Shown here piece after piece: positions 5,435-60,789 of a stretch of 64,000 nt of DNA. The notes below the pieces were generated by a model. That model saw only the letters and a list, made by a program, of their open reading frames with translations, searched no databases and had not been told where the DNA came from. Positions within the stretch are counted from its first letter, which is position 1, and each line of letters opens with the position of its first letter. The position numbers and the translations under genes were made by a program. This stretch comes from Actinomycetes bacterium (GTDB lineage Bacteria > Actinomycetota > UBA4738 > HRBIN12): contig JANLXF010000089.1 of assembly GCA_031364965.1 (NCBI GenBank), positions 15,709 to 79,708 of the forward strand. Direction: 5' to 3'.

Positions 5435-5435
5435 G

Positions 5436-9309: not shown

Positions 9310-9577
9310 ACGTATCCACAGAACCTTTCCACAACGGTGGAAAACCCTTACGGGAAGCTTTGGCTGGCGGGCGAGATTCGGAGCCGCACCGCCGGGGGGA
9401 AGCGCGGGGCGCACGATAGCACGGGGCTTTTCCACACGACCCGCCGTGCGGGGGGTCTTGGCACTCTTTCTCCTGTCAACCCCTTTGTCCTGCGGCGATG
9501 CGGCCCCGTATACTCTGTGACCTTGGCCGGCGCGAGCCGGCTTTCGTCACGAAATCCGACTGACCGAGGGACCGATC
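9310..9577. promoter_or_regulatory. rpmH-dnaA divergent region with DnaA-box cluster and rpmH promoter
   Basis: DnaA boxes GTATCCACA at 9312-9320, TTTCCACA at 9326-9333, GTGGAAAAC at 9337-9345 (reverse) and TTTTCCACA at 9428-9436. TATACT -10-like hexamer near 9507 upstream of rpmH. Confidence 0.6.
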
Positions 9578-9721
9578 ATGGCCAAGGGCAAGCGTACCTA
9601 CCAGCCGAACAACCGCCGCCGACACAAGCGCCACGGCTTCCGTCTGCGCATGCGAACCCGCGCCGGCCGCTCGATCCTCGCGGCGCGCCGCCGCAAGGGC
9701 CGCGCTCGGCTGACGGTCTGA
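9578..9721 (+). CDS. rpmH: 50S ribosomal protein L34
   Basis: 47-aa product [31 protein letters not shown]..., highly conserved L34. RBS gaggga precedes the ATG. Confidence 0.95.
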
Positions 9722-9731
9722 AGCGCCGCCC

Positions 9732-10031
9732 GTGCGTGCGCGGGAGGTTCGCCGGGTGTTCGACGTGGCCCGGCCGCTGCATGGGAGGCGGGTGGTAGTG
9801 TTTCTCGCGCCCGGGACCGGGTCGCTCGCCGTCGTCGCCGCACGTCGCGTCGGTGGCGCCGTCGAGCGGAACCGAGCCCGCCGCATCCTGCGTGAAGCCT
9901 GGCGACAGGTCTCGCCGCAGATCACCGACGATGCCGACGTCGTCCTGGTGGCTCGTGAGGCCATCCGGGGCGCCATGACTCACGACCTGGTGGCCGAGAT
10001 GACCGATCTGCTCGAGGCGAGAACCTCGTGA
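9732..10031 (+). CDS. rnpA: Ribonuclease P protein component
   Basis: 99-aa basic protein immediately downstream of rpmH. Contains the RNR motif (VERNRARRILREAW). Confidence 0.88.
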   Translation: MRAREVRRVFDVARPLHGRRVVVFLAPGTGSLAVVAARRVGGAVERNRARRILREAWRQVSPQITDDADVVLVAREAIRGAMTHDLVAEMTDLLEARTS

Positions 10032-10339
10032 ACGTGATCCGCCGCACGCTGTGGGGCCTCGGTGCCCCCGCCCGCGCGCTCCTGACGGGGGCGATCCGGT
10101 TCTATCGCGCCTCGCTCTCGGGTTGGCTGGGGGGCCAATGCCGCTTCTACCCCTCGTGTTCGCGCTACGGTGAGGCCGCGATCCGAACCCACGGTGCGTT
10201 GAAAGGATCCGTCCTCGCTGCCTGGAGAGTCTTGCGCTGCAACCCTTTCGGGCAGGGTGGCGTGGAGCACGTGCGTCCCCGCCCTCCGGGCACGTCGTAT
10301 GAACACATCATACATAGCTCGGAAGGGGCGGACGTTTAA
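10028..10339 (+). CDS. yidD: Membrane protein insertion efficiency factor YidD
   Basis: Motif FYPSCSRYGEAAIRTHGALKGSVLAAWRVLRCNPFG is diagnostic for YidD. Overlaps the rnpA stop. Confidence 0.9.
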   Translation: MNVIRRTLWGLGAPARALLTGAIRFYRASLSGWLGGQCRFYPSCSRYGEAAIRTHGALKGSVLAAWRVLRCNPFGQGGVEHVRPRPPGTSYEHIIHSSEGADV

Positions 10340-11449
10340 ATGCTCGCCTTCGGCCCCTTCCAAGCGCTGCTCGACGCGATCGGGTGGGTCCTGGCCGGCA
10401 TCTTCGACCTGGTCCCCAACTACGCGGTGTCGATCATCATCCTCACGCTCGTGATCCGGCTGGTGCTGCTGCCGCTCGGGATCAAGCAGATCAAGTCGAT
10501 GCAAGCGATGCAGGCGATCCAGCCTCGGGTCAAAGAGCTCCAGAAGAAATACAAGGGCAACAAGCAGAAGGCGCAAGAAGAGACGATGAAGCTCTACAAG
10601 GAAGCCGGCGTGAACCCGCTCGGCGGCTGTCTCCCCCTGTTGCTGCAGTTCCCGATCCTCATCGCGATGTATGCCGTGATCCGTGCCCCGGTGTTGTCTC
10701 CCGTCGACGGAGCGGCGCAGACCTACCAAGTGCAGAACAACCACCTGCCCGAGGACAGCACGCTCTTCAAAGACGTGATCACGCATACCGACACCTCGGT
10801 CGTCTCGTTGAACTTCCAGTGCTCGGCAGCCCAGAGCGGGACGCAGGCGCAGCTCAACGACACGGCCGGCGAGGCCGTCCAGAGCGGATGGTCGATCCGG
10901 GGAAGGGAGGGGAACCCGCTCGCCTTCACCTCGATCGGCACCCTCGATTGCGGGAACGGCCCCACCGACAAGATCGCGTACTTCGCGATGCTGGTCGTGA
11001 TGATCGGCACGACGTTCTACCAGCAGCGACAGATGCAGAAGGCGAGTCCTCCGGGCGCCGCCTCGTCGCAGCAGCAGGCCATCATGAAGTTCATGCCGCT
11101 GATGTTCGGGATCTTCGGGTTCAGCTTCCCGGCCGGCCTCGTGCTTTATTGGATGGTGTCCAACCTGTTCCAGATCGGACAGCAGGGGTTCCTGCTGCGT
11201 GCAGGCCATATCGGTCCCGACGCCCTCGATCGCCGGATCGCCGAGCAGAAGGCCCGCGCGGCCAACCAGCCCGAGAAGAAGGGCTTCATCGCGGGGATGA
11301 TGGAGCGTGCGGAGCAGGCTCGTCAGCAGGAGGGAAGCAAGGGCGCAGCCGCCCCCGGCACCTCCTCGAAGCGGGGGCCTCGTAAGCCGCCTCCGAAGAA
11401 CCAGCCGCGCCCCAAGCCCAAAGATCCGGGAGGCACCGATGGCCAGTGA
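10340..11449 (+). CDS. yidC: Membrane protein insertase YidC
   Basis: 369 aa with multiple TM segments and 60-kDa inner-membrane-insertase core motifs. Conserved position in the gene order. Confidence 0.93.
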   Translation: MLAFGPFQALLDAIGWVLAGIFDLVPNYAVSIIILTLVIRLVLLPLGIKQIKSMQAMQAIQPRVKELQKKYKGNKQKAQEETMKLYKEAGVNPLGGCLPLLLQFPILIAMYAVIRAPVLSPVDGAAQTYQVQNNHLPEDSTLFKDVITHTDTSVVSLNFQCSAAQSGTQAQLNDTAGEAVQSGWSIRGREGNPLAFTSIGTLDCGNGPTDKIAYFAMLVVMIGTTFYQQRQMQKASPPGAASSQQQAIMKFMPLMFGIFGFSFPAGLVLYWMVSNLFQIGQQGFLLRAGHIGPDALDRRIAEQKARAANQPEKKGFIAGMMERAEQARQQEGSKGAAAPGTSSKRGPRKPPPKNQPRPKPKDPGGTDGQ

Positions 11450-12128
11450 GATCGAGCGGACCGCCCCCACCGTCGACGAGGCGATCGCCGCCGCGCTCGG
11501 GTGGCTCGGGGTCGGCGCCGACGAAGTGGACGTCGAGGTACTGGAGGCCGGTGATCAGGGCGATCCCGGCGGGGCTGCGACGGTGCGAGTGACGGTCCGC
11601 GAGGCGGGACCGGTGTCCGCGCCTTCGGCTGGTGATGCCCGTCGGGAAGACTGGGCCCCCGAGGACCTCGAGGCGCAGGCAGATGCCGTCGCCGACTTCG
11701 TGGACGAGCTCCTCGCGAAGATGGAAATCGACGCGATCGCCGAGCCCAACCCCCAGGACGATGGCCATATGTACGTCGACATCGTCGACGGCCCGGAAGA
11801 GGACATGGCGCTGCTGATCGGCCGCCACGGGCAGACGCTGGAGGCGATCCAGGAACTGGCCCGTATGGCGGTGGGCCGGCGTCTGGACCAGCGAGTGCGC
11901 GTCATCGTCGACGTCGAGGACTACCGGAAGCGCCGCGAGTCCGAACTGATCGAGGACGCCCGGGAGGCCGCGCTCCGAGTGGTCGCCGAGGGAGGCGAGT
12001 ATGCCTTCGACCCCATGAATGCGTACGAGCGCAAGCTCGTCCACGACGCGGCCGCGGATGTCGAAGGAGCCGAGTCGTTCTCCCGCGGGGAAGCGCCCGA
12101 CCGCTACGTCGTGATCCGCAAGCTTTAG
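11439..12128 (+). CDS. jag: Jag/KhpB RNA-binding protein (KH + R3H domains)
   Basis: The ATG at 11439 with RBS ccgggagg overlaps the yidC end by 11 nt. The C-terminal R3H motif (ESFSRGEAPDRYVVI) is present. Confidence 0.88.
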   Translation: MASEIERTAPTVDEAIAAALGWLGVGADEVDVEVLEAGDQGDPGGAATVRVTVREAGPVSAPSAGDARREDWAPEDLEAQADAVADFVDELLAKMEIDAIAEPNPQDDGHMYVDIVDGPEEDMALLIGRHGQTLEAIQELARMAVGRRLDQRVRVIVDVEDYRKRRESELIEDAREAALRVVAEGGEYAFDPMNAYERKLVHDAAADVEGAESFSRGEAPDRYVVIRKL

Positions 12129-12162
12129 TCCCTGATCGTCCCCTGGTCCCCTCCCGTCGTGT

Positions 12163-12783
12163 GTGAGAGGCGTGTTTCACGTGAAACATGAGGGTTGGTC
12201 CGCTCACGAGATCCTCGGGGTGCCACTCGACGCGCGCGCGTCCGCACGGCTGGAACGGTTCGAGGCGCAGCTTCTCGCTCTTGCCGTCCCGATGGGGATG
12301 ATCTCCAAGGGCGATGTCCCCAGACTCCGAGAGCGCCATCTCCTCGACTGTCTGCGAGCCCTCCCACTGTTGGATGCGAACGATCGGCGACTCTGCGATC
12401 TCGGCGCCGGGGCCGGTCTTCCGGGCTTGGTCCTTGCGTGCGTCAGGCCCGACCTCGAGATCGTCCTGACCGAAGTTCGGCGGAACCGAGCGTCGTTCCT
12501 CGAGAGGGCGGTCGTCGACCTCGAGCTCTCCAACGTGCGGGTATGGGGGCGGCGCATCGAGACCCTGCGGGAGCGGTTCGATGTGTGTACCGCCCGGGCG
12601 TTCGGGCCTGCGCCGCGCGCCTGGTCGGCGGCGGAGCGCTTGCTCGAGCCCTCCGGTCGGCTGGTCTACTGGGCCGGCGAGCGATTCGACATCGCTGATG
12701 TCCCCGATGGGGTCGCGACGACGCTTTTCGAGACCCCGGCGCTTGCAAGGTCGGGGGCACTCGCTATCATGAGCCGGCAGTGA
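12163..12783 (+). CDS. rsmG: 16S rRNA (guanine527-N7)-methyltransferase RsmG/GidB
   Basis: SAM-binding motif DLGAGAGLPGLVLA and GidB-type sequence. The start is ambiguous among in-frame GTGs at 12163, 12172 and 12181, which overlap parS. Confidence 0.9.
   Translation: MRGVFHVKHEGWSAHEILGVPLDARASARLERFEAQLLALAVPMGMISKGDVPRLRERHLLDCLRALPLLDANDRRLCDLGAGAGLPGLVLACVRPDLEIVLTEVRRNRASFLERAVVDLELSNVRVWGRRIETLRERFDVCTARAFGPAPRAWSAAERLLEPSGRLVYWAGERFDIADVPDGVATTLFETPALARSGALAIMSRQ
12173..12188. promoter_or_regulatory. parS centromere-like site (perfect 16-bp palindrome TGTTTCACGTGAAACA)
   Basis: Exact match to the chromosomal parS consensus tGTTNCACGTGAAACa. Lies in the first codons of rsmG, about 600 bp upstream of parA. 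Confidence 0.85.
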
Positions 12784-14336
12784 CGAAGGCCTCTTCCGGC
12801 GCCTCAGCCTCGCGTACCTCCGGCTCCACGACGGGTGCCCCATCTTCCGCATCCAAGCCCGGCTCCAAGCCGAAGACGAAGCGAGTCCCCGTCGTGCCTG
12901 ACACCCCCGGGAACGCGAGAATCATCGCGATCGCGAACCAGAAGGGCGGGGTGGGAAAGTCCACCACGGCCGTCAGCCTTGGCGCCGCACTCGCCGATCT
13001 TGGCTTTCGGGTGCTGGTCGTGGACCTCGACCCCCAGGGCAACGCTTCCACCGGGATGGGGATCCGCCACGAGGCCCGGGAGCGGACGATCTACGACGTC
13101 GTCGTGGGCGAGGCTCCGATCCGAGACGCGGTCGTTCCCACGCTGGTCCCGAACCTGCATGCGGTCCCCTCGACGATCGATCTTGCGGGGGCCGAGATCG
13201 AGCTCGTGAGCCAGTTCTCGCGGGAGCATCGCCTCAAGAAGGCGCTCGCCGAGGTGTCGGAGGGCGTGTATGACTTCATCCTCATGGATTGCCCTCCGAG
13301 CCTCGGCCTGCTCACCGTCAATGCGCTGACCGCGGCCGAAGAGCTCATCGTCCCGATCCAATGCGAGTACTACGCCCTCGAGGGGCTCGGCCAGCTCCTG
13401 CGCAACGTCTCGCTCGTGCAGCAAAACATCAACCCGGGCCTGCGCCTCTCCGGGATCGTGATGACGATGTTCGATCCCCGAACCAAGCTTTCCGAGCAGG
13501 TGGTCGAGGAGGTGCAGCGCTTCTTCGGCGACCTCGTCTACGACGTGATCATCCCGAGGACGGTCCGATTGTCGGAGGCGCCCGGCTATGGGCAACCGAT
13601 CACCGTTTACGACCCCAAATCCAAGGGAGCCGAGTGCTACCGGGAGCTCGCACGGGAAGTCGCCCTGCGTCCGCCCCCCGACGAGCCCATGCCGATCTTC
13701 GACGACCTGCCGACCGTGGTGGTGCCCGCCGTGGCGGCAACGATCGCTAGTCCCCCCATGGACGAGGCCGACCTCGCAGAGCTCCCGACGGTGCGATCGG
13801 TGATGCACGAGGCCGCCGACGCGGAGGTGACCGATCAGGTCGAAGACGAATTCGAGACCGAGCAGATCCAGGATGAAGTCGTCGAGGTGGTCGAGGCGAC
13901 GATCGATGCGGCTGAACTGGACGAGGGCCCGGCCCCGAGCGCCGAGGAGATCGTCGCCGCCGACGCGGGGCGCCAGAGCGAGGAAGCCGACGCCCGCGAG
14001 CTCGAGGAGACGCCGTCGGTCGCCCAGGCGCTCGGCGATCCGCCACCCGACGATGACGACGACGTCTGGGAAGAGGTCGATGAGCCGCCGCCGGCGGTCC
14101 CGCGAGTCTCGGCTCCTCGTTCGCCCGCTCCCCCGGGCCAACTGCCCGAGCGCCGCGTGGTCGTGATCGACGAGGATGCCGTCGATTACTCGACGGCGGC
14201 CGAGGCCGGCGGACCGACTCCTTCCCGTGCGACCGAGGATCCGCACACAGCCGTGGCCGACATCGGGGCCACGCTCGAGGATGACGAGGGGTTGCCGAAG
14301 CGCCGATGGAGACTGTTCCGCAAGGGAGGCGAGTGA
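12780..14336 (+). CDS. parA: Chromosome partitioning ATPase ParA with a long acidic C-terminal extension
   Basis: Deviant Walker A KGGVGKSTTAV. The ParA core spans roughly residues 45-300. Followed by ~220 aa of D/E-rich low-complexity sequence ending in a basic tail LPKRRWRLFRKGGE. The GTG start overlaps the rsmG stop. Confidence 0.9.
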   Translation: MTKASSGASASRTSGSTTGAPSSASKPGSKPKTKRVPVVPDTPGNARIIAIANQKGGVGKSTTAVSLGAALADLGFRVLVVDLDPQGNASTGMGIRHEARERTIYDVVVGEAPIRDAVVPTLVPNLHAVPSTIDLAGAEIELVSQFSREHRLKKALAEVSEGVYDFILMDCPPSLGLLTVNALTAAEELIVPIQCEYYALEGLGQLLRNVSLVQQNINPGLRLSGIVMTMFDPRTKLSEQVVEEVQRFFGDLVYDVIIPRTVRLSEAPGYGQPITVYDPKSKGAECYRELAREVALRPPPDEPMPIFDDLPTVVVPAVAATIASPPMDEADLAELPTVRSVMHEAADAEVTDQVEDEFETEQIQDEVVEVVEATIDAAELDEGPAPSAEEIVAADAGRQSEEADARELEETPSVAQALGDPPPDDDDDVWEEVDEPPPAVPRVSAPRSPAPPGQLPERRVVVIDEDAVDYSTAAEAGGPTPSRATEDPHTAVADIGATLEDDEGLPKRRWRLFRKGGE

Positions 14337-41083: not shown

Positions 41084-42436
41084 CTAAGCCTCGCAGCGCT
41101 TGACGATGTCGCCCGGGCCCACCAGGCAGGTGTCGGTCCCGGTGCCGCCGTCAAGGCTGTCCTTGCCACCCTTGCCGTTCAGCGTGTCGTCGCCTCCCAG
41201 TCCCGAGATCGCGTCGGCGCCGCCCTGGCCGAGCAGTGTGTTCGCGTGGCCGTCGCCGGTGAGGAGGTCGTTGAAGCGTGAGCCGAGGACGTTCTCGATC
41301 GCGATCAGCACGTCGTTGCCCTTGCCGGTCTGCTTCACGTTCAAGATCGCGATGACCTTCGCCGTCGAGTTCTTGTAGGTGATCGTGTCGTTGCCCTGGC
41401 GTCCGTTCAGTTTGTTCAGACGGTTGCCGTCGATGAACCGGTCGTCGCCGGCGCCGGTCGCGATCCGCTCGATCGACTCGAAGTGATCGGTTCCCTGACC
41501 GGTGACCACCCGTGACCCGAGGTTCACGACGAGGCCGCCGGCCCCCGTGAAGTCCAGGAAGTCGCGCTTGCCCGCGCCGCCCCGGATCGTGTCGTCTCCG
41601 GCTCCCGGCCGGAACGTGTCCGCCCCGCCCCTGCCCTCGAGCACGTCGTTGCCGACGCCCCCGAGCAACGTGTCGGCGAGGGAGGTCCCGATGACGTGTT
41701 CGACGCCGGTGATCTGGTCGTTGGGCCCGGGTCCCGTGTTGGCGACACCGTCGTTGTAGACGAGTCGGGCGGTGTTGCGGAAGTAGTCGATGGTGTCCTT
41801 GTCGTCGCCGCCGATCATCGTGATGCCGCCGTTCCCGTTCCCGATGAAGCGGTAGTTGTCGGGGCCTGCGTCATAGGTGCCACCGATCGCGCCCGTTCCG
41901 CCGATCAGCGAGATCTGGTCGCGCCCGAACGACGTGGTGGCCCCCGTGAGCACCGCGCCGCCGCTCACGAGCAGATCGAAGTCCTTCGGCTTCTCCCGGG
42001 CGTTCAGGTTGACCTTCTTGGCCCCGAACGTGATCCGGTCGATCCGGTTACCGCCCTGCACCTGGACGTCACCGCCGTTGCCGCCCGCGTCGGCGGTGAT
42101 CTCGATCTCGGACCTGCCCGTCGACTCCTTCGTCGCGCCGGGCGCGAGCGGCCCGTTCGCCAGCGAGATCGTCACCGTGTTGAACCCGTTGTTCCCGGTG
42201 ATCGTGATCGTGTCCGTGTTCTTGACGGTGGCCGAACCACAGAGCGCGCCGCCGACCGTGATGCCGTCGGCTCCCGTCTCGCGCTCGACGGTCGTCGAGT
42301 CCGATCCTCCGAGGGTGATGGTGACCTCCTGTGCTCCTGCGTCGTACGAACAGTTCACGGCCGCGGAGGCGGGGATCGGCGTGAGCAGCGCGACCAGGAG
42401 GCCGGCCGCTGCGGCGGGCAGCGTTCGAAGCTTCAT
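41084..42436 (-). CDS. Secreted RTX-type (hemolysin-type) calcium-binding repeat protein
   Basis: The ATG at 42436 gives the signal peptide MKLRTLPAAAAGLLVALLTPIPASA. Multiple GGxGxDxUx nonapeptides are present (GGVGNDVLEGRGGADTF; GQGGADAISGLGGDDTLNGKGGKDSLDGGTGTD). Confidence 0.8.
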   Translation of the reverse strand: MKLRTLPAAAAGLLVALLTPIPASAAVNCSYDAGAQEVTITLGGSDSTTVERETGADGITVGGALCGSATVKNTDTITITGNNGFNTVTISLANGPLAPGATKESTGRSEIEITADAGGNGGDVQVQGGNRIDRITFGAKKVNLNAREKPKDFDLLVSGGAVLTGATTSFGRDQISLIGGTGAIGGTYDAGPDNYRFIGNGNGGITMIGGDDKDTIDYFRNTARLVYNDGVANTGPGPNDQITGVEHVIGTSLADTLLGGVGNDVLEGRGGADTFRPGAGDDTIRGGAGKRDFLDFTGAGGLVVNLGSRVVTGQGTDHFESIERIATGAGDDRFIDGNRLNKLNGRQGNDTITYKNSTAKVIAILNVKQTGKGNDVLIAIENVLGSRFNDLLTGDGHANTLLGQGGADAISGLGGDDTLNGKGGKDSLDGGTGTDTCLVGPGDIVKRCEA

Positions 42437-42617
42437 CAGTGGGGGGGATCCTTCCGATGGGGGTGTGGGCACCTGCAATCATCCACAGCGAAGGGCGCAG
42501 AGTCATCGGCCGAAAGTCCGTGAGACTCGGACGGCGTGCCGAACCGATGGCGCGCTGCGGCCAAAGGCGGGGTACGGTGAGGTCAAGAAGCTCGGCCTCG
42601 GTCCCGACCAACTCCCT

Positions 42618-43457
42618 GTGAGCCTTCCCCCGCCGTTCGGTGTCCCGCCCCGCCCCGACCTCGGGGGCGAACGCTTCCCGCCGCCTCCCGCCGGGCCGCG
42701 CACGCCTGATCGCCAGGCGCCCTCGCCGCCCCGGCGGTCCGCTTTCCCCGTCCTCGTTGCGCTCCTGGTGGTTGGTGCGCTCGTGGGGGCGTTGGTGGAT
42801 CCGCTCCTGGGCTCCACGACGGTCGAGCCGAGCGCCGTCGGCGCGAAGGGCGATTACTCGTTCATCCACACCCACGGCGGCGACCCCACCCGCTGGAACC
42901 CCTGTGAGCCGATCCACTACGTCCTGGGTCGCGCCGGGCTCACGGAAGGCGGGATCCAGGATGTCCGTGGAGCGATCGAGCGTCTGACCGACGTCACGAG
43001 GGTGTCGTTCACCTATGACGGCCTCACCGACGAGACGCCGAGCCGCGGCCGGGAGCCGTACCAGCCCGATCGGTACGGATCCCGGTGGGCTCCCGTGCTG
43101 ATCGCGTGGGTGGATCCGGCCACCACGGACATCTCCTTCGACGATGACGGGCAGGTGGTGGCGGCCGTGGCGACGCCGCAGGTGGCGAACCCCGACGACG
43201 ACGACACGTACGTGACCGGTTGGATCGCCGTGAACGCCGACGATCCGAACCCGTCCGGCTTCCGCCTCCCCGGCATGCAGGGACCGGTCGTCCTCCACGA
43301 GCTCGCGCATCTGCTCGGCCTCGGCCACGCCGAGTCCAACGGGAATTTGATGGAGCCCTCGGGTGGCGGTGTCACCTCGTTCGGGCCCGGCGACCTCGCG
43401 GGGCTCGAGCTGCTGAGTCGCGACGCGGGCTGCCTGCCGAGTCCACCGATCCCCTAG
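42618..43457 (+). CDS. Membrane-anchored metzincin-type zinc metalloprotease (start uncertain)
   Basis: HELAHLLGLGH matches HExxHxxGxxH. A Pro-rich N-terminus, a TM helix AFPVLVALLVVGALVGAL, and then the catalytic domain. The first in-frame start is the GTG at 42618 with no strong SD. Confidence 0.65.
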   Translation: MSLPPPFGVPPRPDLGGERFPPPPAGPRTPDRQAPSPPRRSAFPVLVALLVVGALVGALVDPLLGSTTVEPSAVGAKGDYSFIHTHGGDPTRWNPCEPIHYVLGRAGLTEGGIQDVRGAIERLTDVTRVSFTYDGLTDETPSRGREPYQPDRYGSRWAPVLIAWVDPATTDISFDDDGQVVAAVATPQVANPDDDDTYVTGWIAVNADDPNPSGFRLPGMQGPVVLHELAHLLGLGHAESNGNLMEPSGGGVTSFGPGDLAGLELLSRDAGCLPSPPIP

Positions 43458-49026: not shown

Positions 49027-50592
49027 GTGCGACGAGCGCTCTACCTGCTGCCCGCAGCGATGCTCGCGGCCTCCTTCGTGGTGGCCGGCCGAAGCCTGTC
49101 CTCGTTCGCCGTGGCGCCCGGTGCGAACGGATCGATCGCCTTCGAGTCCGACCGCGACGGCGATCTCGACATCTTCACGATCCAGCCCGACGGGACCGCG
49201 CTCACGAAGCTCACGCAGAACACCGTCGCGGATCGCGACCCGGCCTGGTCACCCGACGGCTCGAAGATCGCGTTCGTGCGCGACGGGTGTTCGGGGACAT
49301 GCCGGAACCTCTGGGTGATGAACACCGACGGGACCGGCGAGCTGCAGCTCACGAACGAGCCCTCGAGCGTGGCCGACGCCAACCCGTCCTGGTCGCCCGA
49401 CGGCACCACCATCGCCTTCGCGCACCCGACGGATAACGGCGGTCAGTACTACAAGCAGATCTGGTCGGTCCCGGCGGCCGGCGGATCGCTCACCCAGCTC
49501 ACCGCGGCCGCCTTCGCGAGCTGGTCGCCGGACTGGTCCCCCGACGGCTCGAGGATCGTGTTCACCTCGACCCGCGCCGGGGATGCCGCGATCTACACGA
49601 TGAACGCCGACGGCAGCGCTCAAACCAAGGTGTCGTTCGCCGGCGTCACCACGCCGCCCGCCTTCTTGCTCGGCGGTCCGTCGTGGTCGCCGGACGGCAC
49701 CACGTTCGCGTTCCACGGCGCCGGGAGCGCCACGCTCGAGGTACCCAGGCTGCTGCTGTCGGACGCCGACGGCGCGAACACCCGGACCCTGTACGACCCG
49801 ACCGGCGAGGTGTACCCACCCTCGTGGGCGCCCAACGGCAACAAGCTGGTCGTCACGGTGAACACGGGGAGCGGCGCGGTGACGAACATGCAGCTCTACG
49901 TCGTGAACGTCTCGACGGGCGCCGCGACGGCGCTGGCCTCGTCCGGCTCGGTGGAACAGAACCCGAGTTGGCAGCCGGGCATCGCTGCGTCCCCGACACC
50001 GAGCGCGACCGCCTCGGCTTCCGCCTCGCCCGATCCGAGCCCGACGGCGACCCCGCCGCCTCCACCGCCGGGTGGGATCCACGTGGCGGTCACCGACGAC
50101 CTCTTCACGCCGCCGACGGTCGATCTCGCGCGCGGTGGCACGATCGTGTTCGATCACCTCGGGCCCTCGCATCACACGGCCACCGACGCGACCGGGATGC
50201 TCCTGTACGACTCGGGCGCGGTCGACGACACGAGTCCGCCCACCTGGTACACCTTCGAGGCGGCGGGGGTGTATCCGTTCACGTGCCTGCTGCACCCGTG
50301 GATGGGCGGACGGGCGCGCGTGCCGCTGCGCGCGGCCCCGGCCACCGGGCTACTCGGGAAGATCCGCACCGTCACGTGGTCGACCGGCTCGGCGTCGGTC
50401 GGGTTCGTCTTCGACGTGCAGGTCCGACGTCCGGGCCAGGGATGGGCCTCGTGGCGGAAGGCCACCCCGTGGCCCTCGGCCTCGTTCCTGGCGGACGCGG
50501 GGACCGGGGGGTACCGGTTCCGCGCACGGCTCCGTGAGGTGGGGGTCGCCGCGTCGCGATGGTCGCAGCCAGCGACGATCCGCGTGGGTTAG
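49027..50592 (+). CDS. Secreted TolB-like (PD40) beta-propeller protein fused to a C-terminal cupredoxin (type-1 copper) domain
   Basis: Signal peptide. PD40 repeats (DPAWSPDGSKIAFV, NPSWSPDGTTIAFAH, SWSPDWSPDGSRIVF, PSWSPDGTTFAFH). A Pro/Ser/Thr linker precedes the plastocyanin-like ligand set HH...YPFTCLLHPWMGG. Confidence 0.8.
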   Translation: MRRALYLLPAAMLAASFVVAGRSLSSFAVAPGANGSIAFESDRDGDLDIFTIQPDGTALTKLTQNTVADRDPAWSPDGSKIAFVRDGCSGTCRNLWVMNTDGTGELQLTNEPSSVADANPSWSPDGTTIAFAHPTDNGGQYYKQIWSVPAAGGSLTQLTAAAFASWSPDWSPDGSRIVFTSTRAGDAAIYTMNADGSAQTKVSFAGVTTPPAFLLGGPSWSPDGTTFAFHGAGSATLEVPRLLLSDADGANTRTLYDPTGEVYPPSWAPNGNKLVVTVNTGSGAVTNMQLYVVNVSTGAATALASSGSVEQNPSWQPGIAASPTPSATASASASPDPSPTATPPPPPPGGIHVAVTDDLFTPPTVDLARGGTIVFDHLGPSHHTATDATGMLLYDSGAVDDTSPPTWYTFEAAGVYPFTCLLHPWMGGRARVPLRAAPATGLLGKIRTVTWSTGSASVGFVFDVQVRRPGQGWASWRKATPWPSASFLADAGTGGYRFRARLREVGVAASRWSQPATIRVG

Positions 50593-53631: not shown

Positions 53632-53979
53632 GTGGGCGCGGGCGGCGCCTGCGATGCCCTGGCGCTGCAGGCGGCCGTGGAGCTCCCGAGATCCCGCGAC
53701 GGGGACCGCGACGCCTATCCGGGCATCCATCTGAAGGCGGCCGCGCTCCTCGAGGCGCTCGTGCGGTTGCGCCCCTTCGAGCAGGGCAACGATCAGGTGG
53801 CCCTGCTCGCCGTCGCCGTGTTCGTGAACCTGAACGGCTGGGATCTCGAAGCCGAGCCCGACGAGCTCGCGCTCCTTACCCGGATGAGCGCGCAGGGCCG
53901 TCTGCCGCTGTTCGATATCGCGGCCGGGCTCGAATCGGCGACCGTCAGGCTGTCGCTGGAGGAGGAGGAGCCGCCGTGA
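53632..53979 (+). pseudogene. Doc/Fic-family toxin-like protein with degenerate catalytic motif (RPFEQGNDQ in place of HxFxDANKR); no canonical start in frame before 53632
   Basis: Aligns with P1 Doc across the motif and the C-terminal region (FEQGNDQVALLAVAVFVNLNGW.....LALLT vs HIFNDANKRTALNSALLFLRRNGV.....LADLT). The frame is open from 53236 and overlaps the RHH ORF in another frame. Confidence 0.45.
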
Positions 53980-55174
53980 CGGCTGCCGGCGCCGGACGCC
54001 GCCCGGCGGCCAGAGCGAGCCAGGCCGACGCGAGGCCCAGCACGCCGCACCCGAGCCACAGCGTTGTTGTGCTGACGTCGTAGACGGCGGTGCCGGCCAT
54101 CGGCCCGGCGATCGCGGCGGTGGCGTACATCATCCCGAGCGATCCCTGATACCGGCCCCGCGCATGCTCCGGCGCGCGGTCGGCCACGAACGCCGAGGTC
54201 GAGGGCGATTCGACGATCTCGCCGAGCGTCCAGATCACGACCATCAACACGAGCCCGGGAAGCCCCTGGACGACCGCGAGGATGGCGAACCCCAGTCCGA
54301 CGAGCACGGCACCACCCGCGACCATGCGCGTGCGCTCGCGGCGCATCGCCCACGCGGTGATCGGCAGCTCCAGCAGCACGACGAGGACGCCGTTCGCCGC
54401 CTGCAGGAAGCCGTACGTGGCGGTGGAGTAGCCGAGGTCGCGCACATGCAGCGCGAAGGTGCTCGCGTTCTGCATGTAGACCACCGCGGTGAGGAAGACG
54501 GCCCCCAGGAACAACTGGAATCCCCGGTCGGCGGCGATCGATCGGCCGGCCGACCCCAGGCTGCGCTCTTCCTGCTTCGTGGTGCGCGTGCCGTGGGGGA
54601 GCGCGATCAGCGCGATCCCGGCGAACGTCCCCGAGGTGATCGCGTCGCCGACGAACAGCAGGTCGAACGAACGCTGCGCGAGGAGTCCGGCGAGCGCGAG
54701 GCCGAACGCCCACCCGATGTTCAACATCAGACGGTAGGCGCTGAACGCCGCGACCCGGTCCTGGGGCGGAACCAGATCGGCGACGAGCGCGCTCGAGGCC
54801 GGTCGATACAGCTCGGCGACGAACCCGAGCACCAGGATGAGACCGACGATCTCGGGCAGCCCGTCGGCCCAGACCAGCGACAGGGTGAGGGCCGCGCCAC
54901 CCGACATCGACAGGACGATCGTGTTCCGCCTTCCGACGCGGTCGGCGAGCAACCCGCCGACGCCTTGCGCGCCCGTCGCCCCCAAGCCGTACGCGGCGAG
55001 CCCGAGACCGGCCTGGGTCGCCGAGTATCCCCGGTCGGTCAGGTACAGCGTGATGAAGGGCAGCACGAAGGTGCCGAGCCGGTTCACGAACGCGCCGATG
55101 AACAGGATCCACACCTCGCGCGGGAGCGATCGCAGGGTCGCTCGCAGGGAGCGCGCGTCGGGGACGACGCTCAC
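53945..55174 (-). CDS. MFS transporter
   Basis: 409 aa with a GTG start and 12 TM segments (FIGAFVNRLGTFVLPFITLYL...). Confidence 0.85.
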   Translation of the reverse strand: MSVVPDARSLRATLRSLPREVWILFIGAFVNRLGTFVLPFITLYLTDRGYSATQAGLGLAAYGLGATGAQGVGGLLADRVGRRNTIVLSMSGGAALTLSLVWADGLPEIVGLILVLGFVAELYRPASSALVADLVPPQDRVAAFSAYRLMLNIGWAFGLALAGLLAQRSFDLLFVGDAITSGTFAGIALIALPHGTRTTKQEERSLGSAGRSIAADRGFQLFLGAVFLTAVVYMQNASTFALHVRDLGYSTATYGFLQAANGVLVVLLELPITAWAMRRERTRMVAGGAVLVGLGFAILAVVQGLPGLVLMVVIWTLGEIVESPSTSAFVADRAPEHARGRYQGSLGMMYATAAIAGPMAGTAVYDVSTTTLWLGCGVLGLASAWLALAAGRRPAPAAVTAAPPPPATA

Positions 55175-55260: not shown

Positions 55261-56172
55261 TCACCGAGCGACCGGCACGCACGCCGGCGCCGCTGGCGTG
55301 GGTTCGTCGGCATCGGCGGGTTCCTCTCTCGTCGTCGGCGGCGGGGGCAGCTGGTTCATATCATCGCCGACGTCGAGTCGCATCCGGCGGGCCGCCCGGT
55401 CGAGCGCACCCAGGAGCGGCCGCCCGAGCACGAGGACGAGCACCGCGTTGCCGACCGCGCGGAAGGAGTCCCACACGAGTGAGGTCGCCGCGTAGAAGGT
55501 CGCGTAGTGACGCAGGTTCGTGACTGCGGTGGCGTCAGCGTTCCAGCTGATCGACGATCCACCCGTCAGGAAGGGCCAGGACCACAGGTTCATCAGCGCA
55601 CCGAAGAGGTAGCCCGCCACGATGCCGTAGATGGCCAGCGCCCCGATCCGAAGGCGCCAGGACCCGGTGCGGGGCATGAGGCCCGCCCCCATCCCCACCC
55701 AGCCGACGGCGACCATCTGGAAGGGCAGCCACGGTCCGAGCCCGCCGATGAACAGCCCGCTCGCGAACGTCCCCACGGCGCCCAGAAGGAATCCGAACGT
55801 CGGGCCGAACGCGTTGCCGGCGACCAGCACGACGATGAACATCGCGCTGAACCCCGCCACGAAGCCCGGGAGGCGCAAGGCGACCATCGCGGCCCCGAGC
55901 ACCCCGAGCAAGGCGATCGTCTTCGGCCCCATGCCGCCGCGCCCCAGCTCGAGGAAGAGCAGCGCCCCGAGGCCGCCGAGCAGCACGAGCAGCACGGCGG
56001 GCCCGTCGACATGGTGGTTCTCGTTCCCGCCGGTGAGCGCGGGCAGCGCGAACGGCCAGAGGAACGCGAGCAGTCCCACCAGGTTAAGGACGATCAGCGC
56101 GGCGCCGCGCACGCGGGATCCGCCGGTCAAGGTGCGAACGCTCATCGGTCGCGCACTGCCCGCCATGTTCAT
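55261..56172 (-). CDS. Putative ECF-transporter substrate-capture (S) membrane component
   Basis: Polytopic membrane protein. Its ATG overlaps the EcfA stop (ATGA). Last gene of the riboswitch operon. Confidence 0.5.
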   Translation of the reverse strand: MNMAGSARPMSVRTLTGGSRVRGAALIVLNLVGLLAFLWPFALPALTGGNENHHVDGPAVLLVLLGGLGALLFLELGRGGMGPKTIALLGVLGAAMVALRLPGFVAGFSAMFIVVLVAGNAFGPTFGFLLGAVGTFASGLFIGGLGPWLPFQMVAVGWVGMGAGLMPRTGSWRLRIGALAIYGIVAGYLFGALMNLWSWPFLTGGSSISWNADATAVTNLRHYATFYAATSLVWDSFRAVGNAVLVLVLGRPLLGALDRAARRMRLDVGDDMNQLPPPPTTREEPADADEPTPAAPACVPVAR

Positions 56173-57737
56173 GCGAGCGCCTCGGCGACCTGCTCGGGTG
56201 TGAGCCATCCCGCACCGAACGCCCGGGTCATCTGGGGGGCGAAGACGTGCGAGTCGCCGAGCACCTCGCCGGGATCACCGTCGGCGATGACCTCGCCGCC
56301 CGCGAGCATGACGACGCGGGTGGCGACGGCCGCCGCGAGCTCGACATCGTGGGTGGCGAACAACACCGTGCCGCCTTCGGCGGCGTGGGATCGCAGGAAC
56401 CGCGCCAGGCGGGCCTTGGCCTCGGGGTCGAGCCCGCGCGTGGGCTCGTCGAGGAGCAGCACGGGAGCGTGGCCCGCGGCGATCGCCGCGGTCGCCACGA
56501 GGAGTCGCTGCCCGGCCGAAAGGTCTCGGGGGTGCTGCCCCGCGAGGTCGTCGATCCCGAGCGCCGCTAGCACCGCCTCGGGTCGCACGTGATCCATCCC
56601 GCGTGCCTTCAGGGTCACAGCCACCTCGGCGGCGACGGTCTCGGAGAACAGCACGGACTCGGGCTCCTGAGGGCAGAGCGCCGCATCGACGCCCGGCCGC
56701 GGCGCATGGCCTCCGACCCGGGCGGTCCCGGAGGCGGGAGCGTGGACGCCGGCGATCGAGCGCAGCAGCGTCGTCTTGCCCGCGCCGTTGCGGCCCATCA
56801 CGGCGACGATCTCGCCTTCGCCGGCGACGAGGTCGACGTCGTGCAACGCAGTGGCGTCGCCGTGCCGCGCGGTCAGATGACGCAGCTCGACCCGTACGGC
56901 GCCCGGCACCGGGACCACCGGGCTCCGTCGTGCGGGGAGCGCCCCCGCAAGCCGGCGCGCGTCGCGGACCGTCAGCGGGACGGGGTCCCAGCTCATGAGC
57001 CGTCCCAGCCGTGCGACGGGCGGCCCCATCTTCAAGCGCCGGATCACCGCGGCGGGGTCGCCCGCCGTCAGGCGACCTTCGTCGAACCCGATCGCCAGGT
57101 CGACCTGGCCGGCGACGCGCTCGAGCCGGTGCTCGGCGAGGACGACGGTCATCCCCTGGTCGTGCACGAGCCGCTGCAACGCGGCGAACACGTGTTCCGC
57201 GCCCTGGGGATCCAGCTGCGAGGTGGGCTCGTCGAGCACGAGGATCCGCGGGCCGGCGGCGAGCGCGGCCGCGATCGCCACGCGTTGCCGCTCGCCACCC
57301 GAGATCGCGCGGACGCTCCTGCCGCGCAGCGGCTCGATATCCAACAGATCCAGCATCTCCTCGACGCGCCTGCGCATGTGCGCGGGAGCGACGCCGAGGT
57401 TCTCCATGCCGTACGCCAGCTCGTCTTCCACGCGATCGAGCACGAACGACGAACCCGGATCCTGGGGCACGAACGCGACCGCGTCGGCGAGCGCGCGTGG
57501 CGCATGGGCGAGGGTGTCACGCCCGGCGGCGAGGACGCGACCCGTGAATGCGCCGCCTGTGAAATGCGGCACGAGGCCGTTCGCCAGGCGCAGGAAGGTC
57601 GACTTGCCCGCCCCCGTCGGCCCCACCGCGAGGGCGAACGTGCCTTCTTCGATGTCGATGGTGACGTCGCGGAGCGCGGGTTGCGACGCGTCGGGATAGC
57701 GGAAGGAGACGGCATCGATGCGCAGGGCGTCGGTCAT
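56169..57737 (-). CDS. ecfA: Energy-coupling-factor transporter ATPase, fused tandem EcfA1-EcfA2
   Basis: 522 aa with two ABC cassettes: Walker A GPTGAGKST and GRNGAGKTT, two LSGG signatures, and two Walker B motifs. The 777-aa track ORF has a non-coding N-terminus. Confidence 0.88.
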   Translation of the reverse strand: MTDALRIDAVSFRYPDASQPALRDVTIDIEEGTFALAVGPTGAGKSTFLRLANGLVPHFTGGAFTGRVLAAGRDTLAHAPRALADAVAFVPQDPGSSFVLDRVEDELAYGMENLGVAPAHMRRRVEEMLDLLDIEPLRGRSVRAISGGERQRVAIAAALAAGPRILVLDEPTSQLDPQGAEHVFAALQRLVHDQGMTVVLAEHRLERVAGQVDLAIGFDEGRLTAGDPAAVIRRLKMGPPVARLGRLMSWDPVPLTVRDARRLAGALPARRSPVVPVPGAVRVELRHLTARHGDATALHDVDLVAGEGEIVAVMGRNGAGKTTLLRSIAGVHAPASGTARVGGHAPRPGVDAALCPQEPESVLFSETVAAEVAVTLKARGMDHVRPEAVLAALGIDDLAGQHPRDLSAGQRLLVATAAIAAGHAPVLLLDEPTRGLDPEAKARLARFLRSHAAEGGTVLFATHDVELAAAVATRVVMLAGGEVIADGDPGEVLGDSHVFAPQMTRAFGAGWLTPEQVAEALA

Positions 57738-58534
57738 GTGTGCTCCGTCGGGGAGCGGACCACACCCGGGAGGGCAAGGATCCCGATGACGGCGAGCATC
57801 GCGGGGCGGACCGGTGGCCATGCGAGCGGGGAGGTCGCGGGATGCAGATCGGGCCCCTGCTGCCACGCCGCCGCGAGTGACACCGCCGCGCACGCGATCG
57901 CGGACGCCGAGACGCCGACCGCGGCGGGGGTCCAGCGCGAGGGCCGGTACCGGCTCCGACGTCCCCGGCCGTGGCCGCGCGAGTCCATGCTCTCGGCGAG
58001 GGTGACCGCCTCCTCCATGCCGGTCTCGAGCACGGGGACGGCGAGCGCGGGAAGGGTCCGCCACGAAGTCGGGATGCCGCGGAGCGTCTGCGCCTCGCGA
58101 ACGCGCCCCACCATCGCGACGGTGCGCGGCGCGATCGAGAGCGCGAGCGCGGCCGCGAGGGCCGGCTCGTGGAACCGCCGCGGCGCGAGCCGCACGACGC
58201 CGAACGGATCCGTCACGGCATTGAAGGTCCCGAAGACGATCAGGAGGGTCGCCAGCCGAGCGCCCTCGAGCGCGGCGAACGCGACGTTTCCGGCATCGAC
58301 GGTTCCCAGGAAGACCAACGAGGTGCGTACCACCACCGTGATCAGGCCCGCGATCGCGAACAACCGGAACGATCGCGCGGTGGGGCCGGGTATCCGCTGG
58401 GACGCGTAGACGAAGAACGAGACCGCCACGATCAGTGCCAGGTAGAACGGATTCGTCGTGGTGAACGTGACCAGTCCGGCGCAGGTCGCCCACGTGATCC
58501 ACGCACCCGGGTGCAGCCCGCTATCGCGATGCAA
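57734..58534 (-). CDS. ecfT: Energy-coupling-factor transporter transmembrane component EcfT (CbiQ family)
   Basis: CbiQ-like polytopic protein (LHPGAWITWATCAGLVTF...). Candidate TTG start at 58534 with SD ggagac. The stop overlaps the ecfA start. Confidence 0.7.
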   Translation of the reverse strand: MHRDSGLHPGAWITWATCAGLVTFTTTNPFYLALIVAVSFFVYASQRIPGPTARSFRLFAIAGLITVVVRTSLVFLGTVDAGNVAFAALEGARLATLLIVFGTFNAVTDPFGVVRLAPRRFHEPALAAALALSIAPRTVAMVGRVREAQTLRGIPTSWRTLPALAVPVLETGMEEAVTLAESMDSRGHGRGRRSRYRPSRWTPAAVGVSASAIACAAVSLAAAWQQGPDLHPATSPLAWPPVRPAMLAVIGILALPGVVRSPTEHT

Positions 58535-59402
58535 GGGTGCGTCTCCGGCGCATCGTGAGCCAGCCGGCGGCACCGAGCGATGCCACCGCGACGAGCGCGA
58601 GCCACGCCCCTGCGGGTGGCCCGCCCGCTCCGGGCGAGGCGCCGGCGGCGAGGGTGCCGACCGGGCTCGCTCGCACGACCGTCTGGGCGGGCGGTGGGGT
58701 GGGCTCCGTGATGGGCGCCTGAGAATCGTGTGCGCTCGCGCGCGCGCTGGCGGAGGGCTTCGCGGGGCCGGCGGCGCCCGAGGCGCTCGCGTCGGCGCCC
58801 GGGCTCGCACCGGACCCGCCGCTCCCGGAGCCGGTGCCGCCGCCCGCTGGGGCGGGATCCGGACTGGGCTTCGGGCTCGGCGAAGGCGAAGGCGACGGCG
58901 CGGGTGCGGGTTCGCAGACGTCGCCGGAGGCGAGCGCCGGCGGCGAGGCGTGCGTGGTTCCGGAGTCACCCGGCCCCCAGACCCAGCCCTCCATGTCGCC
59001 GTCACCGATCGATGCCGACGCGGCGCCGGAGCCGGCCCAGCTCCAGTTCCCGTTCCCGTCGCCGTGCCAATACCCCCAGTAGTCAGGATAGTCGGCGAAG
59101 CAGTCGCCTCCGCCCGGCCCGATGCCGTCGAGCTGACAGACGGCCTGGCCCCCGAACCCAAGCCCGTACTGCAGGCCGTACTGCCGCCCGGCGAGCTGGA
59201 TCAGGTGCAGGCCGCTCACGCTCGCGGCGTCGAGCGCCACGCAGTAGGTCGACGTGCGGCTCCCGTTGTCGATCACGAGCGCGGCGTGCGGGGCGCCCGT
59301 GGCGGCCGCGCACGACACCCCCGTTCCGGCGACGGCGGGACCGAACGCCGGGAAGGTCAGCGCCAGCGCGACGACGAGCGTGCGGAGGCGACGGGTCGTC
59401 AT
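58521..59402 (-). CDS. Secreted, C-terminally membrane-anchored DUF4430-like protein (candidate cobalamin-binding beta-domain protein)
   Basis: Signal peptide MTTRRLRTLVVALALTFPAFGPAVA. Motif DYWGYWHGDGNGNWSWAGSGAASASIGDGDMEGWVWG fits the DUF4430 W/G pattern. Followed by a Pro/Ser-rich linker and a C-terminal TM helix. Confidence 0.6.
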   Translation of the reverse strand: MTTRRLRTLVVALALTFPAFGPAVAGTGVSCAAATGAPHAALVIDNGSRTSTYCVALDAASVSGLHLIQLAGRQYGLQYGLGFGGQAVCQLDGIGPGGGDCFADYPDYWGYWHGDGNGNWSWAGSGAASASIGDGDMEGWVWGPGDSGTTHASPPALASGDVCEPAPAPSPSPSPSPKPSPDPAPAGGGTGSGSGGSGASPGADASASGAAGPAKPSASARASAHDSQAPITEPTPPPAQTVVRASPVGTLAAGASPGAGGPPAGAWLALVAVASLGAAGWLTMRRRRTLASR

Positions 59403-59405
59403 CGG

Positions 59406-60407
59406 CTACGTCGCACAGGGCGGGGTGGGGGTGATCGGGCCGGCCACCGGGCCGCTGATCGGCAGCGCCCGCAGGAGCAGGCCGGGAACGGCGCCGATCG
59501 TGGCACCGATATCGGGTACGCCGCGCGATGGACCGTCGTACGAGTACGCCCAAGCGCCGCAGTTCGGGTACTGGAGTGCGCGGAGCGCGGTACGTCCTCC
59601 CGCGGGCACCGGGTCGCCCGCCGATGCGTACGCCTGCAGCACGAGCGCGGTGGAATTCGCGTCGGTGGCGATGAACCCGGCCGAGTAGCTCCACCCTCCG
59701 TGGGCGTCGTCGCGCACCGTGTCGAAGAAGGCGAACGGATCGGCCCCGAACTTGCCGCGGTTCGCGGCCTCGAGCGCCTGCACGACGTAAGACGTGGTGT
59801 TCGAGTCGGAGGTGAAGAAGTCGGTGCCCGAGCCGTCGTCGCACGAGGCGTCGTCGGTCCCCGCGGCGTAGGGCTCGTCGTACGCCCATCCGCCGTCGGG
59901 GCACTGCGCGTCGAGCAACCATCCGGTGACGGCGGTCGAGGGCGTGATACCGGCGCTCTCGAGGGCGAGCGTGGCGAGCGCGTCGTCGAACACGGCCGCG
60001 TCGCCGAACCGTCCCGCCGAGATCGTGCCGCGCAAGCCGGCCACGAGGTTCGCGCCGCCGAACGCCCGTGGATCGCGCCCGGCGGCGCTCACCGCGAGCA
60101 CGACCTTCGCCTGGAGGCCCACCCCGGTGACGTTGCCGGCCTCTACCTGGCGGGCCAGGTAGCCGAGCGCGTCGCGCACGACCCCTCTACCCTGGCCGAC
60201 CGCGACGGCGGCGAGGACCGCGTCGGCGGTGGATCCGATCGGCGAGAACGCCGGGATCGAGCCGTTCGGCTTCTGCTGCGATGCGATGTAGCCGAGGCCA
60301 CGCTGGGCGCGTTCGGCGTCGGTGGTCGCGAAGGCCGCCGCCGGGACGGCGAGCAGCAGCGCCCCGATGGTGACAACGGTGAAGATCTTCCTGCGGGTCG
60401 AGCCCAT
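59406..60407 (-). CDS. Secreted prenyltransferase/squalene-cyclase-repeat (alpha/alpha toroid) protein (candidate cobalamin-binding alpha-domain protein)
   Basis: Signal peptide MGSTRRKIFTVVTIGALLLAVPAAAFA. Recurrent GGW-type repeats (QCPDGGWAY; DDAHGGWSYSAG; NCGAWAYSYDG). First gene after the riboswitch. Confidence 0.6.
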   Translation of the reverse strand: MGSTRRKIFTVVTIGALLLAVPAAAFATTDAERAQRGLGYIASQQKPNGSIPAFSPIGSTADAVLAAVAVGQGRGVVRDALGYLARQVEAGNVTGVGLQAKVVLAVSAAGRDPRAFGGANLVAGLRGTISAGRFGDAAVFDDALATLALESAGITPSTAVTGWLLDAQCPDGGWAYDEPYAAGTDDASCDDGSGTDFFTSDSNTTSYVVQALEAANRGKFGADPFAFFDTVRDDAHGGWSYSAGFIATDANSTALVLQAYASAGDPVPAGGRTALRALQYPNCGAWAYSYDGPSRGVPDIGATIGAVPGLLLRALPISGPVAGPITPTPPCAT

Positions 60408-60439
60408 GTGGGTCTACCCCTTTCCGAGCGTCCGCGCGC

Positions 60440-60665
60440 CCTCACGGAACGACCTCCCGGAACACGGCGGGAGGTCGGCGTCGGGGCGAATCGCCCGGCG
60501 GCGCGATCCCCTGTCCACGAGGGTCGTTCGGCCGTGCGTCGCGCAGGGCGGCCTGGCTCGTCCACTCCGATGGTGGACCTACAGTTGCGGGACAGCGCCG
60601 GAATCCGACCGGCTTCGCCTCCGCGACGCGGTGTGCCCGTGACGCTAGCACGCGAGCCGCGAGCG
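60440..60665 (-). ncRNA. Cobalamin (B12) riboswitch
   Basis: Minus-strand transcript contains GGUCGGAUUCCGGCGCUGUCCCGCAACUGUAGG, which matches the conserved core GGUG..AAUCC...CUG.CCCGCAACUGUA. A B12-box-like GAGCCAGGCCGCCCUGC follows. An expression-platform hairpin GACCUCCCG-N8-CGGGAGGUC lies ahead of the RBS AAAGGGG. Confidence 0.75.
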
Positions 60666-60789
60666 CGGCCAATCGCCCCCTTCGAAGGCCCCGTGCGGAT
60701 GATGCCCGAGCGTTGAACGTTCCTTGGGGTGACCTTTACCCGTGGAAGCGTTCATGGGAGGCACGAACCCCGTGAGGAAAGGTGCACCC

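Follow-up and report, generated by a model that had tools for sequence, protein, structure and literature searches.

Most bacteria that require vitamin B12 are unable to make it, and its capture from the environment by Gram-positive and other monoderm bacteria is poorly understood. To our knowledge, the only characterized B12 capture systems of monoderms are ECF-CbrT, a transporter of the energy-coupling factor (ECF) class, and systems of the BtuFCD type. Here we describe a five-gene operon of an uncultured actinomycete of the HRBIN12 lineage, which occupies, together with its structured leader, positions 55261–60665 on the minus strand of a 64,000-nt stretch of contig JANLXF010000089.1 (the whole stretch is referred to as the window). 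The operon stands behind a cobalamin riboswitch and encodes an exported toroid (protein 1), a membrane-anchored protein with a transcobalamin-β-like domain (protein 2), the transmembrane coupling component EcfT, a fused EcfA1A2 ATPase, and a substrate-specific membrane protein (S-component). We consider the operon, with a probability of about 60%, to encode a B12-repressed, dedicated (group I) ECF importer for a corrinoid with a two-protein extracytoplasmic capture module. In the original prediction, made from the sequence alone, the two halves of a transcobalamin-like binder are separate secreted proteins that supply an ECF importer. This is supported by the two folds, the riboswitch, the ECF parts, the conserved synteny, and natural fusions of the two accessory proteins; corrinoid binding by these proteins, singly or together, is putative, by analogy to transcobalamin.

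Comparison with described systems

The closest described system is the lsa1836-1840 operon of Lactobacillus (Latilactobacillus) sakei, which encodes an S-component, a fused AA′ ATPase, a T component, a transcobalamin-β-like protein, and a transcobalamin-α-like protein (bioRxiv 10.1101/864751). According to the available text of that preprint, the five components are the same as those of the window operon, both accessory proteins are exported, and the authors likewise see in the system a transcobalamin-like binder in two parts that supplies an ECF importer, though for heme. The five-gene architecture and the split-transcobalamin reading are, to that extent, already published for L. sakei; the likeness is one of architecture as described there and not of sequence homology. 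L. sakei belongs to the Firmicutes, whereas the window operon is from the Actinomycetota. The L. sakei pair was found as transcobalamin homologs by HHpred (E values of 1e-21 and 1e-24), whereas the window pair has no sequence-level link to transcobalamin. Compared with what the available text reports for L. sakei, the window operon is set apart by the sequence family of its β-domain (probably PF28005/SCO2322), by a toroid closer to squalene-hopene cyclase, by the long linker and transmembrane (TM) anchor added to the β protein, and by a tight riboswitch linkage, which is nearly universal in the family of the window operon and is not mentioned in that text.

The eukaryotic carriers transcobalamin, intrinsic factor, and haptocorrin consist of an α6/α6 barrel and a transcobalamin-fold β-domain, both of which are also present in the window pair. 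These carriers are single polypeptides that deliver their ligand to an endocytic receptor, whereas the window system is encoded by two genes (fused in the rare homologs P0475 and P0481), has one membrane-anchored half, and would deliver to an ECF transporter. The window proteins share ~14% sequence identity with the eukaryotic carriers and have no hidden Markov model (HMM) link to them, and sequence searches of the Protein Data Bank (PDB) with the family profiles gave no match to transcobalamin, intrinsic factor, or haptocorrin at E ≤ 10.

ECF-CbrT of Lactobacillus delbrueckii is a characterized ECF-type B12 transporter for cobalamin and cobinamide, and the study on it does not describe a toroid partner (PMC5997447). 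The window operon resembles it in encoding an ECF transporter in a B12-related gene context. However, CbrT belongs to the group II S-components and makes shared use of a general ECF module, whereas the window module is dedicated and its ATPases are fused. In freshwater acI Actinobacteria, ECF modules behind cobalamin/adenosylcobalamin riboswitches are predicted cobalamin transporters of B12 auxotrophs (PMC5301498). Their likeness to the window operon is by description, and toroid or β-domain accessory proteins are not described for them in that study.

The best curated families for proteins 1 and 2 are SCO2321 (NCBIfam NF053823) and SCO2322 (NF040672; PF28005) of Streptomyces, named after adjacent genes of S. 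coelicolor, for which we found no functional literature. Protein 1 reached 90.6 bits with NF053823, the cut-off of which is 300, and protein 2 reached 30 bits with NF040672 (cut-off 85), with the match confined to residues 107–166. The two proteins are therefore relatives and not equivalogs of SCO2321 and SCO2322. The SCO2321 model covers 405 positions and carries the name of a membrane protein, in contrast to the anchorless protein 1. In regards to protein 2, precomputed annotation places PF28005 in many of its close homologs; PF28005 was not among the matches of protein 2 in the Pfam copy searched, which probably lacks this family.

Gene organization

All operon elements of the original prediction were found where it had placed them, on the minus strand (Table 1). 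Neighboring genes are 3 nt apart or overlap by 4–14 nt: the ATG of protein 2 follows the stop codon of protein 1 after a gap of 3 nt, and the start of ecfT overlaps the end of the protein 2 gene by 14 nt. For the S-component, the upstream ATG at 56208 that had been proposed is a possible start; we prefer 56172, which yields a protein of 303 aa, equal in length to the database protein P0241.

Very long open reading frames (ORFs), the largest of 752 aa, lie on the strand opposite the operon (window 58458–60716 on the plus strand, among others) and could mislead a gene caller. We regard these as compositional artefacts because of the G+C content of the window (69.5%) and the codon-position GC analysis.

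Cobalamin riboswitch

We compared the operon with a sample of 75 loci encoding protein 2 relatives, nearly all from metagenome-assembled genomes (MAGs) of Actinomycetota, with a few bins labeled otherwise. The leader of the window operon is a genuine cobalamin riboswitch. A sensitive scan of 701 nt gave an RF00174 core match at 60552–60613 on the minus strand with 31.3 bits and an E value of 4.2e-6, or roughly 4e-4 when rescaled to the whole window; the gathering score is 31.5 bits. The significant match agrees with the B12 riboswitch that had been predicted, and the predicted range of 60440–60665 takes in the aptamer and most of the expression platform.

The slightly sub-threshold score of the window is rescued by the homologous leaders, since these reach the gathering score, share the core motif, and show compensatory changes. 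RF00174 was found at or above the gathering score in 7 of the 11 scanned loci, at the equivalent site upstream of the protein 1 homolog (31.5–44.1 bits, four matches being full-length). The core GCTGTCCCGCAACTGT and the B12 box GAGCCAGG are invariant in all nine aligned leaders, and 11 of the 34 predicted pairs show compensatory changes among the aligned homologous leaders. Furthermore, the composite motif of core and B12 box was present in 71 of the 72 evaluable loci, where it typically precedes the start of protein 1 by ~115–180 nt, and was found nowhere else in 839 kb on either strand.

In regards to the expression platform, the consensus fold of a 12-leader alignment pairs a conserved GUUCC with the Shine-Dalgarno (SD) sequence GGAGN, and the conserved platform element GUCGUUCC is the predicted partner of the SD sequence. 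This predicted pairing suggests that the operon is controlled at the level of translation by SD sequestration. We do not claim a transcriptional mechanism, because the terminator scan found no convincing intrinsic terminator in the leader and the single-sequence fold of the platform was not significantly stable (z = −1.19).

Exported toroid and β-domain proteins

Both proteins 1 and 2 carry signal-peptide-like N-termini, as expected of the secreted proteins that had been predicted. Protein 1 is predicted to be an exported (α/α)6 toroid, with a signal peptide ending in AFA. The α6/α6 toroid fold proposed for it is supported. Its Pfam SQHop_cyclase_C score is 16 bits, below the cut-off. The GGW repeats described earlier are partly present: two motifs are GGW and the third is GAW. 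Protein 1 contains four invariant cysteines (169, 189, 283, and 331), and it shows neither a DxDD motif nor a Pfam match above the cut-off by which a class II terpene cyclase would be recognized. The lack of DxDD, the signal-peptide-like N-terminus, and the four invariant cysteines indicate that protein 1 is exported and probably non-catalytic. We rejected its identification as a terpene cyclase on the grounds of the absent DxDD motif, export, disulfide cysteine pairs, and ECF context. A tblastn search of protein 1 against 72,556 plasmids gave no match.

In protein 2, the signal peptide is followed by a conserved domain (~135 residues), then by a low-complexity linker rich in Pro, Gly, and Ser (~90 residues), and finally by the C-terminal TM helix. 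The AlphaFold2 (AF2) model of the β-domain has a pLDDT above 90. The top 16 Foldseek matches of this domain were 3u7z and transcobalamin structures only, with probabilities of 0.99–1.00 and a target-normalized TM score of 0.76 for the isolated domains, in agreement with the transcobalamin-β-like character that had been proposed. Four cysteines are conserved across the wider family and would most simply form two disulfides.

The DUF4430-like assignment of protein 2 in the original prediction was not supported by HMM search, there being no meaningful PF14478 match in protein 2 or 46 relatives. PF14478 gave nothing for protein 2 at E ≤ 0.1 and matched none of the 20 close members at E ≤ 10; among the 27 diverse members, a single match at E = 0.11 was noise. 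PDB sequence searches with three β-domain profiles, including alignment A2 and the diverse A6, gave nothing relevant, and an exact-sequence lookup of protein 2 returned no record.

The membrane anchor predicted for the C-terminus of protein 2 appears in the AF2 model as a helix at residues 264–292 followed by an RRRR tail. In alignment A2, this end of the protein (window 58521–58640) shows a conserved GGPPxGA, the hydrophobic helix, and the RRRR tail, an arrangement resembling a sorting signal, and some homologs bear the JGI label "LPXTG-motif cell wall-anchored protein". No LPXTG motif was found in protein 2, and the NCBIfam sorting-signal models did not match it. Either a simple TM anchor or a sortase-type signal that has escaped recognition could account for this C-terminus.

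ECF transporter module

The EcfT, double-cassette ATPase, and S-like membrane protein of the original prediction are supported by Pfam and NCBIfam models. EcfT matches Pfam CbiQ with 23.5 bits (E = 5e-5), slightly under the cut-off of 25, contains the two xRG coupling motifs EAQTLRG and ESMDSRG, and is kept in 69 of the 75 loci. The fused EcfA1A2 matches ABC_tran twice (160 bits), with Walker A motifs at aa 39 and aa 315; it scored 250.8 bits for TIGR01166 cbiO (cut-off 211.8), and the ECF-ATPase models of NCBIfam gave 273–282 bits, with 280 for ECF_ATPase_1 and 273 for ECF_ATPase_2. The S-component matches PF12822 ECF_trnsprt with 42.1 bits, above the cut-off of 30.7, and its Pfam matches are limited to PF12822 and PF07155, CbiM not being among them. 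No NCBIfam subfamily was found for it. EcfT, two EcfA cassettes, and an S-component are thus encoded together by overlapping genes, as in a dedicated group I ECF transporter. A CbiMNQO cobalt system was rejected on the family of the S-component and the absence of CbiN: the operon encodes neither the CbiM/NikM-type S-component nor the CbiN-like ORF of a CbiMNQO or NikMNQO system.

Conservation and natural fusions

The order protein 1, protein 2, EcfT, EcfA, S-component is kept in ~67 of the 75 loci and in essentially all of those on long enough contigs, and the toroid and β-domain genes are adjacent in essentially all loci. In a search of 1.84 billion cluster representatives (clusters at 50% identity), the β-domain profile matched 2,599 at E ≤ 0.001. 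Among the best 150 β-domain representatives, two are genuine single-chain fusions, P0475 and P0481. P0475 combines the toroid, the β-domain, and a TM anchor in one chain in the domain order of transcobalamin (hhalign probability of 99.6%, E = 5e-24), and its gene is directly followed by EcfT and EcfA homologs. P0481 is a β-β-toroid chain that is present on three contigs. A third candidate, P0376, still has an internal signal peptide and was therefore discarded as the product of a frameshift or of faulty gene calling. At the fusion loci L076, L077, and L079, no riboswitch was found in the ~140–210 nt available upstream, a length that makes the result uninformative.

Distant β-domains (~31–33% identical) share the same gene context behind strong full-length cobalamin riboswitches. 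The order at locus L081 is riboswitch (62.5 bits), toroid, β, β, EcfT, EcfAA′, S-component, and the cobalamin riboswitch of L082 scored 50.3 bits. These results indicate that the module belongs to the B12 regulon well beyond the clade of the window.

Some relatives have two or three tandem SCO2322-type β-domains in a single protein, or two consecutive β-domain genes (P0476, P0488, and L081 4416–7272), which suggests that the stoichiometry varies or that a system can have more than one binding unit. In L082, the riboswitch is separated from the toroid gene by a 151-aa ORF without a Pfam match (716–1171). Upstream in L081, on the other strand, lie a URO-D-family gene and a major facilitator superfamily (MFS) transporter gene (1–596). 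An RNase P RNA (RF00010) was found at or just beyond the end of the S-component match in L028 (10029–10409, 274 bits) and L051 (9942–10366, 259 bits), and none was found in the window at the gathering score; the downstream neighborhood therefore varies among the loci.

Proposed function and alternative explanations

In the corrinoid importer that we favor, a high intracellular level of coenzyme B12 would occupy the leader aptamer and turn the operon off, probably via SD sequestration, and a low level would allow the five translationally coupled proteins to be produced. Protein 2 would be held in the membrane by its C-terminal helix and display its β-domain away from the membrane on the flexible tether of ~90 residues. 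Protein 1, a disulfide-stabilized toroid, has no anchor of its own and so presumably needs a partner to stay at the surface. By analogy with transcobalamin, it would pair with protein 2, and the corrinoid would be clamped at the interface, thereby retaining protein 1 at the cell. The ligand, for which cobalamin, another cobamide, and cobinamide are candidates, would then be handed to the S-component, and EcfT/EcfA1A2 would power its import.

Several results weigh against this explanation. The Rfam scan of the whole window at the gathering score returned no match, the riboswitch falling 0.2 bits short. No sequence method ties protein 2 to the transcobalamin β-domain or to DUF4430, and PF01122 gave no match to protein 1 at E ≤ 0.1. 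Moreover, terpene cyclases resemble protein 1 more closely than transcobalamin does, in both sequence and structure, so that its likeness to the transcobalamin α-domain is generic to the fold. No solved S-component, including that of ECF-CbrT, matched the S-component as a single sequence or a profile at E ≤ 10; this is weak negative evidence, because S-components diverge quickly. The same comparison bears on the possibility, raised with the original prediction, that the S-component might prove to be of a Co/Ni or other-vitamin system: it is not CbiM, and it matched none of the solved S-components. Cobalamin riboswitches also commonly govern cobalt transporters, and the sole experimentally studied operon of the same architecture, that of L. 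sakei, is linked in the available text to heme and not to B12.

The alternative that survives best, though we consider it unlikely, is that the operon encodes a corrinoid importer in which proteins 1 and 2 do not form a transcobalamin-like clamp. Protein 1 would then be an extracytoplasmic enzyme or cell-envelope protein of the terpene-cyclase/glycosidase-like toroid superfamily, such as one acting on bound corrinoids to release or remodel them, and protein 2 could bind alone or serve as a scaffold. Consistent with this, protein 1 is closest, by sequence as well as by structure, to class II terpene cyclases (squalene-hopene cyclases and others) and to the hydrolase MmpH; an isolated transcobalamin β-domain has been crystallized with cyanocobalamin bound (entry 5np4); and family members occur with two or three β-domains and no toroid in the same chain. 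However, the DxDD motif is missing from protein 1, the toroid and β-domain genes are adjacent in essentially all loci and fused in P0475 and P0481, and an anchorless protein 1 would call for a surface partner.

An importer of cobalt (or nickel) is less probable still. In such a system, the riboswitch would control the supply of metal to B12 synthesis, with the two accessory proteins acting as extracytoplasmic binders of the metal or a metallophore. Besides the regulatory precedent noted above, the ATPase score above the cbiO subfamily cut-off, the match of EcfT to the CbiQ family, the deposition of the bacterial structural neighbor 3u7z as a "putative metal binding protein", and the conserved His and Cys residues of protein 2 point in this direction. 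The names cbiO and CbiQ, however, are historical labels that cover all ECF A and T subunits. The S-component matches the generic vitamin-type families PF12822 and PF07155 instead of CbiM/NikM, no CbiN-like small membrane protein is encoded, the conserved cysteines of the β-domain are most simply read as disulfides, and the accessory proteins fold like the two halves of a corrinoid carrier.

Least probable of the three is an importer of heme or another non-corrin tetrapyrrole, as put forward for lsa1836-1840, an operon that the available text ties to heme uptake with heme docked at the α/β interface (bioRxiv 10.1101/864751), since a cobalamin riboswitch precedes the operon almost invariably in close and distant members, so that expression would follow B12 and not iron or heme, and no heme-related genes lie nearby.

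Returning to the corrinoid importer, a two-protein module of the transcobalamin type is tied to B12 more clearly by the window locus than by any earlier genetic evidence, given a riboswitch association that is nearly universal and extends to distant relatives. If the two proteins bind corrinoids, a function could be given to PF28005/SCO2322 proteins and SCO2321-type toroids, among them the Streptomyces ones, and many soil Actinomycetota known from MAGs alone would be marked as B12 scavengers. The family would also offer a bacterial system, with carrier halves naturally separate or fused, for studying the function and evolution of transcobalamin-type proteins. We propose more tentatively, as a view with somewhat less than even chances, that the toroid and the SCO2322-type β protein are a widespread bacterial two-protein counterpart of transcobalamin, that is, a tethered surface corrinoid trap that supplies dedicated ECF importers and, in distant lineages alike, forms part of the B12 regulon. 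If true, monoderm soil bacteria would have an uncharacterized major route for scavenging B12, and the pair would plausibly model the origin of the eukaryotic B12-carrier architecture, the α-then-β order of which is reproduced in rare fusions.

Genomic surroundings

Table 1. Positions of the operon, its leader, and other features in the window.
Feature	Position	Strand	Remarks
Cobalamin riboswitch aptamer	~60526–60664	minus	From alignment with full-length RF00174 matches in L004, L007, L014, and L051
Aptamer closing helix	GCGTCGC 60623–60629 paired with GCGACGC 60536–60542	minus	
B12 box GAGCCAGG	60552–60559	minus	Motif within aptamer
Expression platform	60408–60525	minus	Downstream of aptamer
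Hairpin GACCTCCCG...CGGGAGGTC	60451–60476	minus	In expression platform
Conserved anti-SD element GTCGTTCC	60446–60453	minus	In expression platform
SD sequence GGAAAGGGG	60417–60425	minus	In expression platform
Protein 1 (exported toroid)	59406–60407	minus	333 aa
Protein 2 (β-domain, linker, TM anchor)	58521–59402	minus	293 aa
Transcobalamin-β-like domain of protein 2	58908–59300	minus	aa ~35–165, after signal peptide
C-terminal TM helix of protein 2	about 58548–58619	minus	Followed by RRRR tail
EcfT (transmembrane coupling component)	57734–58534	minus	266 aa, TTG start
Fused EcfA1A2 ATPase	56169–57737	minus	522 aa, ATGA overlap
ECF S-component (substrate-specific membrane protein)	55261–56172	minus	303 aa, ATGA overlap
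MFS transporter	53945–55174	minus	409 aa, 86 nt downstream of S-component gene
gyrA	556–3009		Origin region
gyrB	3026–4972		Origin region
dnaA	7873–9435		Origin region
ParA-type ATPase	12780–14336		Origin region

The genes adjoining the operon are unrelated to B12 and encode an MFS transporter, PadR, inositol-1-phosphate synthase, a SnoaL-like protein, YaaA, and PAC2. No terminator-like site was found between the S-component gene and the MFS gene. Further away, a 464-aa ORF at 41084–42478 contains RTX calcium-binding nonapeptide repeats (HemolysinCabind, E = 9e-11); its gene call is ambiguous because a second ORF with high GC at the third codon position (41877–43457) overlaps it on the opposite strand.

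A gene for a PD40/WD40-like β-propeller (49027–50592) lies ~4.7 kb from the operon on the opposite strand, and a Tricorn/PD40 propeller gene (11126–12940) directly follows the S-component gene in L081. BtuG of Bacteroides is a β-propeller that binds B12; the occurrence of propeller genes near the two operons is possibly a coincidence. The chromosomal replication-origin region occupies window positions 556–14336, and the operon lies ~45–50 kb from dnaA.

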